Shown here in pieces: positions 9,001-15,000 of a stretch of 64,000 nucleotides of DNA; within the stretch, counting starts at the first letter, position 1; every line of letters begins with the position of its first letter. The position numbers are program-made. Source of the stretch: Nitrosopumilus sp. (GTDB lineage: Archaea; Thermoproteota; Nitrososphaeria; Nitrososphaerales; Nitrosopumilaceae). The stretch is from NCBI GenBank assembly GCA_965205425.1, contig CBDBGZ010000005.1, positions 64,001 through 128,000 on the forward strand, given 5' to 3'.

Positions 9001-12000
9001 AGGAATTATGTGAAATTTGAGATTCATCAACAAGAATTTTTTCAATACCCAAATGATCAGCCAATAAACGAGCTGGAACTAATCCACCTCTACTCAGAGT
9101 GCTGATGTTTGAAAAAGTTCTTGAAGATTTTGAAATAATATCAGATAGTTTTTCAATTATGGAATCAATTTCAGACCATTCAACATATTGCGCCAAAGAT
9201 ATAATCAAAAATGAAAAAGGAGAATTAAGTTGTTTTGATTAAAAAGTCTTCATTGGAGATTTTTTTAAAGATTCAATAATTTTTAGAACTTTGAATGGTA
9301 GTTGACCAAAATCAATCTCTTTTTCACAAGATAACAATAACACATCATCGTTATTCAATGGGAAACTCATGACAATAACTTTGTCTCGATAAGACATTGA
9401 GAAATGAACTTCGCCAAATTCAGCATCAAATTCGTGTCTCATTCTAACACGTAATGCTAGTTCCATGAACATCATTTCATCTTGTTTTTGGGCTTCAAGA
9501 GAAAGCAAGCCATCCTTCATCCCCCCAGCTGTAAGATGACCTCGACTATTAATGAGCCTAGCTGAACGCATTTTTGGATCTAGTGCAATAATGTTTTGAC
9601 ATATTTTTTCAAGTTCATCAACATTATCCATTAGTCTAATTTAGTAATCGAACTATTTATTGCGATCTGTAATAATAGATATCTGTGCAGTCAGATTCTT
9701 CAAAAAATACCATGGATTACTACAAACATTTGTCATTATTCTGGACAGACATTATGCATTTAATGTCCAGTAAACCACAAGCATTAGCATCTACTGGGCC
9801 TATGAGAGCGTTTGCAGCAAATTCAAAAAAAGTAACCACAGAATTAATTGAAATTAATGAAGATTTGATGGGATTTAATCAATACCTTATGGAATATTAT
9901 AAACAATTAACAAGTGCTTGGGAAGTTGCACAAAAAAAAGTCAATTTGAAAGCTCCTGAAGTACCACAAGATGTAGAACAAATTGAAGCATTCAAAAGAA
10001 TATGGATAGACATTTTTGATAATGATTTTACAGAATTGTTTGATTCTAAAAGTTTTGGAGAAAATTATGGAAAGCTTGTGTCAAAAGAATTAGAATTGAC
10101 AAAACATTGGAACAACATTACAAATGTAGTTTTACAATCAGTTAACCTTCCAAGCAAAGAAGAGATCGATGAAGTATACAAAGAACTTCATTCATTGAAA
10201 AAAAGAGTTGGAAAACTAGAGTTAGAATTAAAGAAAAAAGAGATGAAGAAAAATGCATAGTGAATCTAAAATCGACCCAAAAATTATTGAAGAAGTTTTA
10301 AAATTTAGTAAAAATGTTATTGATGCTCCAAAACTAGTCTCGGCCCCAGATGAAATTAGTTTAGAGGTAACACCTCATGATACAGTTCATGAACTAGATA
10401 AAACAAGATTACTTCACTATAGACCACTTACAGAAAAGCAACACAAAACACCATTATTGATTTCATATGCATTGATTAACAGATATCACATATTGGATAT
10501 TCAGCCTGAAAAAAGTTGGGTAAGGAATCTTCTTGAACAAGGATTTGATTTGTACATGCTAGATTGGGGAACTCCAACAAGTATGGACAAATATCTTGAT
10601 TTTGATGATTACGTCAATGGATATCTAGATTCAGCTGTAGAACATATCAAAAACGTGTCATCTACTGAAAAAATTTCATTGCAAGGATATTGTACTGGGG
10701 CAACCATTGCAACAGCATATACTGCATTACATCCAGAGAGTGTAAAAAATTACATCGCCACAGCACCTGTTATTGATGGATGGCGAGATACAACAGTAAT
10801 CAGTAATCTAGCAAAACACATGGATGTGGACAAAATGGTTGAAACCATCGGCAATATGCCTCCAGAATTCATGTACTATTGTTTTTCAGTTCTAAAACCA
10901 TTTGAACAAGGAATTGAAAAATATGTAAAATTTTTCAAAAATATAGATAATAAGAAATTTGTAGATAATTTCCTCAGAGTAGAAAAATGGTTAGGAGACA
11001 CACCACCTATTCCAGGAGAACTATTCAAACAGTGGATTAAAGACATCTATCAAGACAATCTGCTTATCCAGAACAAAATGTATGTTGGAGGAGAGCATAT
11101 TGATTTGAAGAAAATTGACATGCCCACATTTACGCAAATTGCCGTAGGAGATCATTTAGTATCTCCCGAGTGCAGTATGCCACTACATTATGCTATTGGT
11201 AGTGACGATAAAACATTGAGAATGTATCCAACAGGACATGTAGGGATGATAGCAAGTTCATTGTCTCAGAAAAAAGTATTACCTGAGCTAGGGAAATGGT
11301 TATCAGAAAGATCATAAAAAAGGAAAAAATAAAAAAATATTTTTTGCTAGTTTGTTTTTGTAGTGAATATAGAAATCCAAGATTGTAGGATATTTCTATT
11401 TAGGTCAGCAAATGATTTTGCATTATCGTTGAATGTTTTGATATTTTGTTGTGTTGCATCGATAGTTGCAAGAGTTATTTGATTTTGTATAGAAGCTGCC
11501 TTGATGAATTCTTCAGTGGTATCATGAATCATTTTCAATGATGCGTCAGGAAGATTTGCAACAATACCAGATTTCTTTGCATATTCTTTTTGTAGTGTAA
11601 TAGTTGAATCAACTATATTTTCATATGCTTTTAGGTATTCCTGTTGTACATTTGTAATTGATTGATGATATTGTGGTACTGATTGTCTAATACCGCTAAA
11701 GAGTTTGTCAACATTTTCTTGATATGCAGAAAATACATCTTTGGAATTCGTTTTGGTGATTTTGTTTTTACTCATTGTTTCACCTCCTTATTTTTTGATT
11801 TTTTTGCTATGGGTAAAATAATGACTTGGACTAAATCACCATCTCCTAAACCAAGTGCATTTCGTTCGGCTTCAGGAATAGAGATTCTTCCATTACTACT
11901 GATAGTAGTTTTGTAAGCACCCCAATTCATGAAAGAAGGAAGCATTTGGCCGATGCTGAACATGGCATCCATACTTTTACTTTGCATGATAGACATGTTA

Positions 12001-15000
12001 TCCATCACATTAGATTGAGTTTGTTTAGCACTGTCAGAAATTCCTTTTAGTGCTTCTAAAGGATTGAACGTTTGACTAGTTTGATTCCCCATCAAAGAGC
12101 CAAAATTTTTCATAAATTCTGCTTGAGCACGTCCACTTTTTTGAATCCAAGATTTGAACATCTCAGAAGGATCATATGGGTTTTGATTACCATTCATTGG
12201 TAATAATTGGAATAATTAGTATTTAAATGAATCTAAATACCATTTAAGAATTCCAATACTTTTGAAGCAAACGTGTGAGGATCTTGAACATACGGAGTAT
12301 GTCCACATCCATCCATTCTAAAAAACCGACAATCCTGAATTGCCGAAATGAAACTATCAGAATAATCAATTGGAATAACGGGATCCTCAGCACCCCAAAT
12401 TATGAGAGTAGGTGTTGTGATAGACCCAAGTTTTGTAGTAATAGATTTAGAATTTTTTAATCCTAAAACGGTAGACATGAATGCAAGTTTTGCATTAGGT
12501 AATTGCATTCGTTCAACAAAACCAGTAATGATTTCTTGTGGGACTGCTTCACCAGAACCTTCCATGAGTTCAAATGCATTTTTGGCAGTCTGTTCATTAG
12601 GATATAATGCGGCCATGACATATGCATCAAGAGCAGGAGTTGATTGCGTCATAGCACCTGCAGGGGAAACAAGAACAAGTTTTTCAATTTCCTCAGTATG
12701 GGATGAAGTGTAATTAGCTGCTATTTGCCCACCTAATGAAGAACCAATTAGATTAGGACGATTGATTTTAGTTTGTGCAAAAAATTTTTCTAAAAAGTCG
12801 GAAAAATATTCAGGAGTATAATCAACATGGGGTTTATCACTTAATCCAAATCCTATCAAATCAGGAACAATAACACGATAATCTTTTGAGAAAAGAGGAA
12901 TTACATTTAGCCATCTTTCAGCTGATGCCCCCAATCCATGAAGTAGAACAAGAATTTTTTTGGAATTGCATGATTCCAAATATCGGATTTTATGTCCATC
13001 AATTTGAAGAAATTTCTCTTCCACTATTTTAGCTACAATTATCATCAGTAGATAAGTTTTAGTGAATTAAGCGATCAATGTTCTTTCCAGAAATTATTTC
13101 GTGTCACTTTCATGAGTAATTCCTCCATAGAATGCTTGGGTCTATGAGTATTTCGTTTGTTATCATCTTGGAGTGATACGCATCAGATGGTGTCTCCATA
13201 TTATCCAAGTCTAGTGCGCCATGAACTCTAATGTGATTGTACCAATGCATAAACTGCTCCACTGACTCAAAGTATTCTATTTTACACTCAAAGATATCCC
13301 AGAACTTTTCTAGCTTACCATTTGTTTGTGGATGTCTCACTCTTGTACGAGAGTGCTTTACGTGATGTCTCATTAGTTGCTGCTCAAAGTCTACTGGCTT
13401 GTTATGATCAAGAGTATTGACATTTGATGTGAACTGTTTTCCATTATCAGATAGTACGGATGCTGGTCTACCGTGATTCTTTATTGCATCAGATAGTACT
13501 GCAGAAGAATTCACAGATGTTGCCTCATCATACACTCCGAAACCCGTGATAAATCGTGAGGCATCATCTTCAAATGCAATTAGTTGTTTTCCTGCCCAGC
13601 GTGAATCATGTATTGTGTGCCAGTCAGTATGCCACAGTGAATTTGAATATTCACGTTCATACCTGATCCACTTTCTTCTCATCTTTTTCCGTGGTTGCTC
13701 AACTGATAATCCTTCATCTAGCATAATCTTGTGGATGCGATTGTGGTTTATCTTGGTATTGTACAATTTTGATATGATTTTCTCAAGGTATAGTGCGTTT
13801 GTATGAAATTTTTCTTGAACTTGTTTGACTAGCTCTATCTCGTGTACAGTGACTGGCTTTTTTGGACGCCCTGGTCTTTTGAGTGTGGGAATCTTTTTGG
13901 TTTTTTTGTACTGAGAGTAGACTTGTTGTACTCTTCTAGGCGTTATCTTGAGGATTACTGAAATATCTAAATTCTTGACTTTTTCATTTTTAGATTGTAT
14001 AATCCACCTGATCTTATTCTCATCTAACTTTACCATAGGCATGCCACGATACCCACGCATACGATAGTATGGGAATGATGCTCTCCTAGTTAAGGGGTGA
14101 AATAATTTCCGGAAAAGATAATAATTTCCGGAAAAGATAGAATTAAGCGATCAATCGAGTATTTACATTAAAGATTTTGAATAATGAAAATAGCAAGTAT
14201 GTTTTTTAGTATCAATAAATGACATAATTTGTGATTAAAAAGAAAATTACAAAAATTTTAGTTCCTTTGGATGGATCTAAAAATTCTATCAGAGGTTTAG
14301 AAACGGCTATTACATTAGCTAGGAATTGCGGGGCAACAATTACTGGAATTTACTCGATTTACGCACCACCACACTCAGAATTTAGAGGAGTAGGATCAGT
14401 AGAAAAAGCCCTAAATGTACAAGTTAAAAAATTCATGGAAGAAGCAAAAACGATGGCTGCTAAAAATGGCATTGTGTTTAAAGAAAAAATAGCCATAGGT
14501 GAAATAGGATATAATATCATCAAACTTGCTCACGGGAAAAGTCATTTCGATATGATCGTAATAGGTTCAAGGGGAAGAAGTTCTACCAAGGAGATGTTTT
14601 TTGGAAGTGTATCAAATTATGTACTTCATACATCCAAGATTCCAGTTGTCTTGGTAAAGTAATCTAAGAAAATCCTTGTTTTTTGAAATATTTTTGATGA
14701 TATTCTTCAGCTTTGTAAAAGGTGGGAGCAGGTACAATTTCGGTAACTATGGGAGAATCATATTTTTCAGATTTTTCAAGGGAGTGTTTTGAATTTTCTG
14801 CAATTTCTTTTTGGGTTTCATCATGATAGAATATTGCTGAACGATATTGGATTCCAACATCAGGACCTTGTCGATTTAATGTTGTAGGATTATGATTAGC
14901 CCAAAATACATCAAGTAATTCTTCAAATGAGATTTCATTAGGATCATATTCTACTTCAACAGCTTCTGCATGGCCTGTTTTATCAGTACAAACTTCTTCA

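Follow-up and report, generated by a model that had tools for sequence, protein, structure and literature searches.

A probable storage-granule locus in ammonia-oxidizing archaea: a PhaR homologue with a predicted operator, a phasin-like protein and a candidate depolymerase

The closest described system is the phaJ1(maoC)-phaR-phaP-phaE-phaC cluster of Haloferax mediterranei, carried on pHM300 (PMC9049629, PMC7137286). It combines a class III PhaEC synthase with an AbrB-type PhaR; phaR overlaps phaP, a small helical gene that is co-transcribed with it yet more abundant, and phaEC lie outside the PhaR operator. A review places 'four tandemly repeated sequences', whose letters it does not give, in the Haloferax phaR promoter. 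Homologues of haloarchaeal PhaP are described as limited to haloarchaea (PMC9049629). In bacteria (Ralstonia eutropha and others), PhaR-phaP circuits follow the same logic, with a granule-titrated repressor acting on itself and on scattered phasin genes. In ammonia-oxidizing archaea (AOA), the PHA synthase and granules are already known; for Nitrosopumilus maritimus there are reports of granules and of a Raman band of PHA. Canonical depolymerases are described as absent from AOA (PMC3835317), and a KEGG-based survey lists the N. maritimus PHA genes without PhaR or PhaZ (PMC11082331). The literature search found no paper naming AOA phaR, phasin-like or hydrolase genes.

The window analysed here is a stretch of 64,000 nt from a Nitrosopumilus sp. 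genome (contig CBDBGZ010000005.1, positions 64,001 to 128,000 of the forward strand), and its features are collected in Table 1. The locus shares with Haloferax a class III PhaEC, a homologous AbrB-type PhaR, a phaR that overlaps a small, abundant helical gene, phaEC outside the PhaR operator and a predicted tandem-repeat operator of identical sequence with a 10-bp period. It differs in that phaEC are inverted and convergent, phaJ is missing from the genome, additional unlinked phasin genes bear the operator, and the candidate depolymerase is a conserved alpha/beta-hydrolase in place of the patatin PhaZh1. From the bacterial circuits it is set apart by an unrelated DNA-binding domain (AbrB here) and by phasin families that are unmatched at library cut-offs. 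Collectively, the locus is probably the AOA storage-granule module, a probability that refers to its regulator and phasin part. An earlier note on this DNA had proposed such a Haloferax-like module, which the common operator and its presence at unlinked phasin genes support more strongly than the note's own evidence.

The five genes (phaE, phaC, phasin-like, phaR and hydrolase) are genuine and conserved, and the ORFs lie where the earlier note had put them, the last three convergent on phaE-phaC. For phaE, the position 9712 given there is that of an internal ATG; a start at the GTG upstream of it, at 9685, agrees with the N-terminal peptide observed for PhaE in N. maritimus. phaR and the phasin-like gene may form one unit, with 4 nt shared between the end of one and the start of the other and an internal Shine-Dalgarno site, both compatible with co-transcription. 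Separate conserved TATA-like boxes precede the hydrolase gene and phaR, and the three genes are therefore not one simple operon. The true start of the hydrolase is probably the GTG at 13024.

Table 1. Features of the locus and of one unlinked paralogue (window positions)
Feature	Position	Strand	Basis or remark
phaE promoter	9648..9667	+	TATA-like core with flanking conserved GATC-type inverted element; without PhaR operator
phaE, class III PHA synthase subunit, 191 aa, GTG start	9685..10260	+	PF09712, 44 bits (cut-off 25.7)
phaC, class III PHA synthase catalytic subunit, 354 aa	10253..11317	+	TIGR01836, 412.8 bits (cut-off 365.3)
A/T tracts between converging stop codons, likely bidirectional archaeal terminator	11318..11346	.	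sequence
Phasin-like P0001, 142 aa, Nmar_0992 orthologue	11347..11775	-	AF2 model, hydrophobic moment, abundance, co-loss with phaC
phaR (P0002), 141 aa, N-terminal amphipathic helices and C-terminal AbrB domain	11772..12197	-	hhalign/HMM against haloarchaeal PhaR
Perfect Shine-Dalgarno site GGAGGTGA of the phasin-like gene, within the phaR 3' end	11780..11787	-	genome-wide ORF comparison and related loci
Predicted PhaR operator TCCA-N6-ACCA-N5-TGGT, spanning the leaderless phaR start	12189..12211	-	promoter conservation
TATA box TTTAAATA of the phaR-phasin unit, ~27 nt ahead of the ATG	12220..12227	-	same spacing kept in relatives
Alpha/beta-hydrolase P0003, Ser103-Asp221-His249, GxSxG box	12233..13045	-	candidate intracellular PHA depolymerase or oligomer hydrolase
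Hydrolase promoter: TATA-like box 13049-13056, conserved GATCGC 13071-13076	13049..13076	-	without PhaR operator
Unlinked phasin paralogue, 137 aa	34864..35277	-	phmmer E 6e-37 against P0001
Paralogue promoter: TATA 35300-35307, adjoining ACCA half-sites in 10-nt phase (35311, 35321, 35341)	35300..35344	-	array at 10/10 orthologous promoters

P0002 (g0676 of the earlier note) is, by sequence comparison, a true homologue of Haloferax PhaR, as had been claimed, with a similarity that reaches past the C-terminal AbrB domain. The two families align by hhalign at 99.7% (E 5.6e-27) over 84 columns that include the N-terminal helix, and 15 columns are invariant between them; the AbrB-like domain is 50% identical to that of H. 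mediterranei PhaR (residues 90-135). Best matches are reciprocal. The haloarchaeal HMM finds a single ORF of this genome, P0002 (E 9e-21; runner-up 1.3), and P0002 finds one protein per genome in 56/121 Halobacteria, at E<=6e-8. Generic plasmid AbrB proteins appear in the comparison only at E>=2. The proximity to phaC described earlier is borne out: phaC adjoins PhaR in 27 of the best 30 haloarchaeal matches, and is present in 48/51 haloarchaeal loci selected with P0002 or H. mediterranei PhaR.

The protein encoded downstream, P0001 (g0675), is phasin-like by behaviour, and this serves as a working description. It is small and all-helical, with two long amphipathic helices (14-69 and 77-140) in the AF2 model (pLDDT 91), and its hydrophobic moment ranks 7/792. 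Of 1958 ORFs, no other has a site like GGAGGTGA 18 nt or less from its start, and this site or a one-letter variant is kept in most related loci. In the N. maritimus proteome (PMC11082331 supplement), the orthologue reaches intensities of 3.3e10 and 5.0e10, compared with 7.5e8 and 2.6e9 for PhaC and 1.7e8 and 8.7e7 for PhaR, i.e. 19-44 times PhaC and 202-580 times PhaR in raw intensity. Four paralogues occur elsewhere in the genome (E 6e-37 to 3e-21), as noted before, one of them inside the window. A search for N. viennensis locus tags matching a soil-family phasin brought up no named member from that species. The nearest named ESM Atlas clusters are all PHA-granule families, with a recognition score below the Atlas's own bar; the nearest one bearing a Pfam family is the Bacillus megaterium-type phasin PF09602 (0.90, 177 features), of equal length. 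Curated phasin families, PF09602 included, give no hmmscan match to P0001, and 3/89 members of its family match Phasin_2 (best E 0.0016). Foldseek with the P0001 model finds no match, and VIA-align returns generic long helices only (best Z 6.9); no phasin structure is among the matches listed, a result that excludes nothing. UniProt automatically names Nmar_0992 a phasin.

It is possible, if somewhat doubtful, that P0001 is a highly diverged true PhaP orthologue, the phaR-phaP pair descending from a single operon of an archaeal ancestor. In position, size and translational overlap its gene equals Haloferax phaP, a small helical ORF lies downstream of phaR in four lineages, and each profile, run against the genome or loci of the other family, ranks that family first or close to it. 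The earlier ranking by a PhaP HMM is reproduced (phasin-like ORFs are the top 2 of 5247, E 0.04), with a signal that is largely compositional. Against common descent, hhalign between the AOA and haloarchaeal profiles gives E 0.068, while a reversed profile gives 0.17; the AOA profile scores haloarchaeal PhaE on par with PhaP, and reversed PhaE and PhaP proteins still head its list. PhaP homology is not established, because reversed-sequence controls score nearly as high. By blastp, P0001 does not match H. mediterranei PhaP; two possible bridging families stay within heptad-block shuffles and provide no bridge, and an Atlas search from haloarchaeal PhaP has no Nitrososphaerota cluster among the matches listed. 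P0001 ends in a neutral helix and lacks the Asp/Glu-rich C-terminal region of haloarchaeal PhaP (PMC7137286), an acidic tail that may be a mere reflection of halophily. Of the earlier assignment, 'phasin' is therefore retained on structure, abundance, regulation and co-loss, and 'haloarchaeal-type PhaP' is doubtful.

The hydrolase P0003 (g0677) is a reasonable depolymerase candidate from genomic context alone. All 19 orthologues located lie within ~4.3 kb of phaC or adjoin phaR, across four families and varied gene orders, and the Ser-Asp-His triad is invariant in 20/20. P0003 is predicted to lack an export signal, its model opening with beta-strands at residue 8. The cytoplasmic PhaZ of Bacillus thuringiensis (PDB 8YNV/8YNW) has the same fold, a similar size and a GxSxG box; it stands at rank 24 among structural matches (TM-score 0.83, 22% identity), behind C-C hydrolases and lipases, and P0003 scores 99.7 bits on the corresponding model NF050089, whose cut-off is 300. 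The genome has three Abhydrolase_1 matches, and no patatin domain of the Haloferax PhaZh1 type occurs in P0003 or elsewhere in it. On these sequence comparisons P0003 is the only clear depolymerase candidate of this genome, and the chance that this presumably cytoplasmic Ser-Asp-His esterase hydrolyses PHA polymer or oligomers is put at slightly below even to about even.

A part in PHA metabolism other than polymer breakdown, i.e. as an oligomer hydrolase, an acyl-CoA thioesterase or transferase, or a PhaC chain-release enzyme, is a reading of lower but appreciable probability. It agrees with a tight genomic association at a similarity below depolymerase level. GATCG/CGATC precedes phaE in 38/42 metagenome loci (background 101/1743) and marks the hydrolase promoter in 52/60 metagenome and 34/43 genome loci, while the PhaR operator is found in 0/18 phaE upstream regions and 0/43 hydrolase promoters; an element common to hydrolase and synthase would suit a role in synthesis. 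Haloferax, moreover, mobilizes PHA mainly via PhaJ1, and a depolymerase knockout has no effect there. Apart from the fold of the Bacillus enzyme, what counts against this reading is that the genome has neither PhaJ/MaoC nor patatin, and thus no other clear route. An orthologue of P0003 is not among the N. maritimus proteome entries listed, a search by guessed accession and name that is uninformative. Hydrolase matches also adjoin haloarchaeal PhaR loci in 13/51 cases (12/30 in one set, after removal of one PhaC cross-match, and 1/21 in the other), and this pha-linked hydrolase, located beyond phaJ1, is the best genome-wide match in 7/9 genomes. The orthology implied by the earlier note is rejected: the AOA and haloarchaeal enzymes are not sisters in two quick trees, and a separate AU test of their grouping gives p 0.0197 (with long branches and a group widened after tree inspection). 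The AOA profile scores bacterial plasmid proteins at 189-134 bits and haloarchaeal ones at 127-111 bits, and the best plasmid matches to P0003 are hydrolases from bacteria, whose genes have no pha neighbour at a distance of up to 3 kb.

A predicted tandem-repeat cis element is present in the own promoter of the window's phaR. Sequence conservation defines an operator, ACCA-N6-ACCA-N5-TGGT, common to AOA and haloarchaeal phaR promoters; from its position, we infer that it is the published Haloferax repeat. Exact ACCA-N5-TGGT occurs in 16/46 AOA phaR promoters (35 when relaxed) and 22/51 haloarchaeal ones, compared with 0-1 for alternative spacers and a background of 0.2-0.3%. Two duplicates (L050, L051) are left out of the motif counts, and two weak class-level matches without pha genes (L052, L053) are discarded. 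A matrix built from haloarchaea alone gives the window's phaR start the top score of the genome (17.7 vs 13.8). The TGGT half-site coincides with codons 2-3, so that some conservation could reflect protein constraint, although GGT encodes Gly-3 of phaR in 37/41 codons vs 143/396 elsewhere. The phaR repeat recurs at unlinked phasin paralogues, at 10/10 orthologous promoters against a background of 12/1743, which points to a regulon. Where the phasin gene comes first (family f2), the array is at the phasin gene in 5/5 loci and at phaR in 0/5, and in genome G004, with a phasin gene outside the pha cluster, the palindrome travels with the phasin. The operator is absent from phaR in 3/3 loci of family f3 and 3/3 non-AOA loci, and accompanies just 8/32 f3 phasin-like ORFs, whose starts were picked in this analysis. 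Three of this genome's five paralogues lack it, and a matrix from paralogue promoters places the genome's own paralogue just 8th. An exact 15-nt pattern search in 15 genomes does no better than its reversed control, with phasins at 2/30 loci; a sigma-70 promoter scan, a method unsuited to archaea, gives chance counts.

PhaR could instead serve chiefly to anchor the granule or nucleoid or to activate synthesis, the array being a nucleation site and not a repressor site. A review states that Haloferax PhaR promotes PHBV synthesis independently of PhaP, the N-terminal part of AOA PhaR is ~35 residues longer, and some phaR genes have no array. This is unlikely: wherever a lineage has the array, it either lies over the transcription start or borders directly on the TATA box, the classic position of a repressor site. 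In haloarchaea it sits upstream of the TATA box, whereas at AOA phaR it overlaps the start codon.

In the favoured granule-module reading, PhaE-PhaC make PHA, to judge from family scores, and the AbrB domains of PhaR would bind the 10-bp-periodic ACCA/TGGT array, a site drawn from conservation and a binding drawn from Haloferax. Bound PhaR would, as in Haloferax, block its own leaderless start and the unlinked phasin promoters. Its N-terminal amphipathic helices may partition onto the granule, and new polymer would thereby titrate PhaR off the DNA. The phasin-like gene, second on the transcript and with the genome's strongest ribosome site, would yield a two-helix coat protein in large excess, functionally a phasin, from a family not alignable to haloarchaeal PhaP. 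The hydrolase, expressed from its own promoter, may hydrolyse polymer or oligomers and so fill the reported AOA depolymerase gap. More tentatively, a PhaR regulon of ancient origin that spans the archaea and keeps a single operator might control PHA storage in two phyla or more (that of the haloarchaea, with a further class besides them, and that of AOA) through separate non-alignable phasin families, with the AOA hydrolase as a new class of intracellular depolymerase feeding monomers to the 3HP/4HB cycle under a second regulator common to the synthase. AOA rank with the most abundant microbes and fix carbon globally, and regulator-operator pairs are seldom pinned down in them. The locus supplies a regulator, its predicted binding site, a top-50 protein that may coat the granule and a single candidate enzyme for PHA breakdown. 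How ocean and soil nitrifiers control their carbon storage becomes directly testable in E. coli or Haloferax, with no need for AOA genetics, and the phasin transcript level could be used in situ to mark carbon storage.

Conservation of the locus is far above chance, with the proviso that related genomes are not independent and one deletion can remove adjacent genes. P0002 has a match in 51/54 genomes of the same family. Among 61 genomes of the order, phaC is present in 21/21 PhaR-positive ones and PhaR in 0/36 phaC-negative ones; phaC-positive genomes yielded no PhaR in 4/25 cases and no hydrolase orthologue in 6/25. In 80 metagenome loci, a phasin-like gene follows phaR in 69/70 with room for it, the hydrolase precedes phaR in 69/69 and phaC is present in 47/47. 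A reading that denies any relation between the three neighbouring genes, taking them for a housekeeping esterase, a coiled-coil protein and an AbrB protein of generic type, would suit the generic library matches of each gene taken singly and the seven loci where AbrB proteins matching the PhaR profile lack pha neighbours, and is highly improbable, being already contradicted by co-occurrence, the common operator, the reciprocal PhaR match and a co-loss that includes unlinked paralogues. In five genomes of five genera (97-99% complete), phaC, all phasin-family genes and the hydrolase are jointly absent.

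In ammonia-oxidising archaea (AOA), the pha locus is a real, conserved version of the Haloferax granule module. A Haloferax-like granule-control module had been proposed in the earlier note, and PhaR homology, a common operator and conserved gene association bear it out. The AOA regulator and operator are homologous to those of Haloferax, whereas the phasin family is lineage-specific and the hydrolase is a candidate depolymerase. The Haloferax PHA system is described in PMC9049629, PMC7137286, PMC10948481 and PMC4823750. For N. maritimus, PMC11082331 reports granules and a Raman band and lists six PHA genes, none of them PhaR, PhaP or PhaZ. 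AOA are described as lacking canonical depolymerases (PMC3835317), and carbon limitation as lowering PhaE and PhaC (PMC12542715); further background is found in PMC4084955, PMC8561730 and PMC3353902. In the literature searched, a phasin, PhaR, operator or depolymerase of AOA is named nowhere, though subscription papers and supplements may mention them. Nothing stated here depends on the unpublished genome G307.

Features of the pha locus and of related sequences (positions count along the window unless a contig of the genome under study, G000, is named)
Feature	Position	Strand	Remark
phaE	9685-10260	+	passes PF09712
phaC	10253-11317	+	passes class III cut-off
helical 142-aa protein P0001	11347-11775	-	converging on phaE-phaC
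AbrB protein P0002 (PhaR homologue)	11772-12197	-	converging on phaE-phaC
hydrolase P0003	12233-13045	-	converging on phaE-phaC
GATCG/CGATC element, phaE	9648-9667
GATCG/CGATC element, hydrolase	13071-13076
rve insertion sequence	13079-14120		ORF 13110-14060, -
second transposase family	5243-6154 and 33852-34652	-
unlinked phasin paralogue	34864-35277	-
phasin paralogue pair	G000:C4:176082-176579 and C4:309528-310025		near-identical
163-aa protein	G000:C9:561220-561711	+	matches Nmar_1590 peptides

The hydrolase, the AbrB protein and the helical protein, all said to converge on phaE–phaC, were found as ORFs in their places, and the helical protein indeed has four paralogues elsewhere in the genome. 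In the best 30 loci of relatives, the hydrolase and the helical gene are always present (30/30), with phaC within 1.5 kb in 29/30. Eighteen wider regions from more distant genera contain phaC (18/18), the hydrolase (15/18) and the helical gene (14/18), and in 80 metagenome loci the helical gene follows phaR in 69/70 cases, the hydrolase precedes it in 69/69 and phaC is found in 47/47. Genomes of two Nitrososphaerales families, f2 and f3 (G116, G120, G310, G321, G339, G348, G356 and G364), have a second PhaC-like gene, which is longer and scores under the class III cut-off.

On sequence grounds, the regulator of the AOA pha locus is PhaR. Among homologues of the AbrB protein, the named ones come from Nitrosopumilus and carry no annotation beyond AbrB or transcriptional regulator. 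A PLSDB search with P0002 yields six matches at E ≤ 5e-6, all haloarchaeal AbrB proteins, with generic AbrB proteins at E ≥ 2; the three inspected are each the gene before phaP–phaE–phaC, including that of H. mediterranei pHM300. Pairwise alignment with haloarchaeal PhaR covers the AbrB domain only; profile–profile comparison gives 99.7% over 84 columns, N-terminal helix included (reversed control 0.4%). In Halobacteria, 56/121 genomes have one strong PhaR match each, and 27 of the best 30 matches lie beside phaC. Searched against the 5247 ORFs of the genome, the haloarchaeal PhaR HMM finds P0002 alone. The homology claimed earlier for the AbrB gene is supported. Across 61 genomes of the order, phaC is present in 21/21 PhaR-positive genomes and PhaR in 0/36 phaC-negative ones, while four phaC-positive genomes yielded no PhaR; because related genomes are non-independent, these counts are patterns, not p-values.

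A TATA box is conserved ∼27 nt before the phaR ATG; phaR therefore has its own leaderless promoter. The motif YCCA-N6-ACCA-N5-TGGT spans the phaR start, its right half lying within codons 2–3, and GGT is used in 37/41 Gly-3 codons of phaR versus 143/396 other Gly codons. Exact ACCA-N5-TGGT occurs at 16/46 AOA loci (35 when relaxed) and in 22/51 haloarchaeal phaR promoters; other spacers between ACCA and TGGT give 0–1 cases, and the background is 0.2–0.3% per window. The haloarchaeal version, with four half-sites in 10-nt phase, probably corresponds to the published phaRP promoter repeats of the Haloferax system and fits the ‘four tandemly repeated sequences’ quoted in a review. When a matrix derived solely from 32 haloarchaeal promoters is run over the 2.2-Mb genome, the top score (17.7) falls at window positions 12177–12213, with the runner-up at 13.8. 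This putative operator is common to AOA and haloarchaeal phaR.

The ACCA array at phaR and unlinked phasin genes is predicted to define a regulon. Upstream of the unlinked paralogue and its orthologues, ACCA-N6-ACCA stands directly against the TATA box in 10/10 readable promoters, an 11th locus, interrupted by a contig end, being left out. Such an arrangement is found at 12/1743 ORFs of the genome, phaR and the unlinked paralogue included. In f2, where the helical gene precedes phaR, the array is at the helical gene (5/5) and not at phaR (0/5); in family f15 the array is at phaR (5/5). In genome G004, where the helical gene lies away from the pha cluster, the palindrome is at that gene's start. 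Against a regulon, the operator is absent from f3 and non-AOA phaR genes (0/6), is seen at only 8/32 f3 phasin-like ORFs with automatic start picks and was not found upstream of three phasin paralogues of the genome; in addition, a matrix trained on paralogue promoters ranks the genome's own paralogue site only 8th. The top match of this matrix, G000:C8 near 162622 (-), has no ORF start of ≥80 aa behind it. Neither phaE (0/18) nor the hydrolase (0/43) has the operator upstream.

Beyond AOA, PhaR profile matches occur in 22 of 201 genomes of the haloarchaeal phylum: eight haloarchaea, nine of another group and five with a different AbrB subfamily. The other group, which belongs to the same phylum as G121, is not halophilic; its nine genomes have 10 loci (L376–L384 and L390) with phaR and a 106-aa helical ORF; phaC, phaE or phaJ is nearby in 4/10 and the operator present in 6/10. 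The related but different AbrB subfamily (L385–L389, L391 and L392; five genomes) adjoins a prenyltransferase-like ORF, with neither pha neighbours nor operator. In two other Nitrososphaerales families (f18 and f20), loci L285–L287 contain phaR and a 126–135-aa helical ORF, with phaC nearby in 2/3 and phaJ in 2/3, and with no hydrolase orthologue or operator.

The helical protein P0001 is predicted to work like a phasin. The model consists of two helices (14–69 and 77–140; pLDDT 91), and the hydrophobic moment ranks 7 of 792. Among 1958 ORFs, only the P0001 gene has GGAGGTGA ≤18 nt from a start. In the N. maritimus proteome table of PMC11082331, the 142-aa orthologue Nmar_0992, whose peptides match by eye, has intensities of 3.3e10 and 5.0e10, compared with 1.7e8 and 8.7e7 for PhaR and 7.5e8 and 2.6e9 for PhaC; the sheets, apparently sorted by intensity, list it in rows 51 and 37. 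Five near-complete genomes from five genera lack phaC, the whole phasin-like family and the hydrolase; in the three examined for PhaR, it is absent too. In the ESM Atlas, the named clusters nearest to P0001 belong to four PHA-granule families, with PhaP_Bmeg highest at 0.90 but below the recognition bar, and Nmar_0992 is a ‘Phasin family protein’ in UniProt and ‘hypothetical’ in RefSeq.

The phasin claim of the earlier note survives as to phasin-like behaviour (helix model, abundance and co-loss with phaC). Membership of the haloarchaeal PhaP family is a separate matter, which the searches do not support: hhalign of the P0001 family against it gives no significant match, and the PhaP HMM does place P0001 second among the 5247 ORFs (11.9 bits), but reversed P0001 scores almost equally (10.4). 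With an HMM of the AOA phasin-like family, haloarchaeal PhaE scores as high as PhaP. In two further lineages a 106–135-aa helical ORF comes after phaR, and neither provides a bridge between the AOA family and haloarchaeal PhaP.

The 163-aa protein on contig C9, Lys-rich then amphipathic, ranks 5 of 792 by moment and has no operator upstream; Nmar_1590 is a ‘Phasin domain-containing protein’ in UniProt. Its basic N-terminus resembles granule–nucleoid linkers such as PhaF. The paralogue pair on contig C4 lacks the conserved C-terminal Trp and the operator, and one copy adjoins an rve insertion sequence.

The assignment of g0677 (P0003) as an alpha/beta-hydrolase is confirmed by a capped fold model and by Ser103, Asp221 and His249, invariant in 20/20. 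The structures closest to the model are those of C–C hydrolases and lipases; B. thuringiensis PhaZ ranks 24th (TM 0.83). In the order sample, all 19 matches at E<1e-60 are in phaC-positive genomes, each within ∼4.3 kb of phaC or adjoining phaR, in several gene orders; paralogues with weaker scores, between E 1e-35 and 1e-58, are not counted, and one of these is in a phaC-negative genome. The genome has no patatin and no MaoC/PhaJ, and only three Abhydrolase_1 matches (P0003, PhaC and a partial one). P0003 is a candidate PHA depolymerase, a guess from context with slightly less than an even chance of being right. Certain haloarchaea encode a hydrolase on the same strand as phaR, past phaJ1; it is the best genome-wide match in 7/9 genomes chosen for having such a hydrolase. 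It does not join the AOA hydrolase in one clade in trees, and the AU test rejects their union, so that the orthology implied earlier for g0677 homologues beside haloarchaeal phaR falls.

A GATCG half-element is common to the hydrolase and phaE promoters (52/60 and 38/42 metagenome loci; background 5.8%) and may be a lead to a second regulator. The GATCG/CGATC element, which the two promoters have in common in close relatives, is distinct from the PhaR operator. Immediately upstream of the hydrolase promoter lies an integrase-core (rve) insertion sequence, with >30 near-identical copies across the genome, which stops a few bases short of the conserved GATCGC and leaves the promoter seemingly intact. 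In the second transposase family, the copy adjoining the phasin paralogue is the shorter (266 versus 303 aa).
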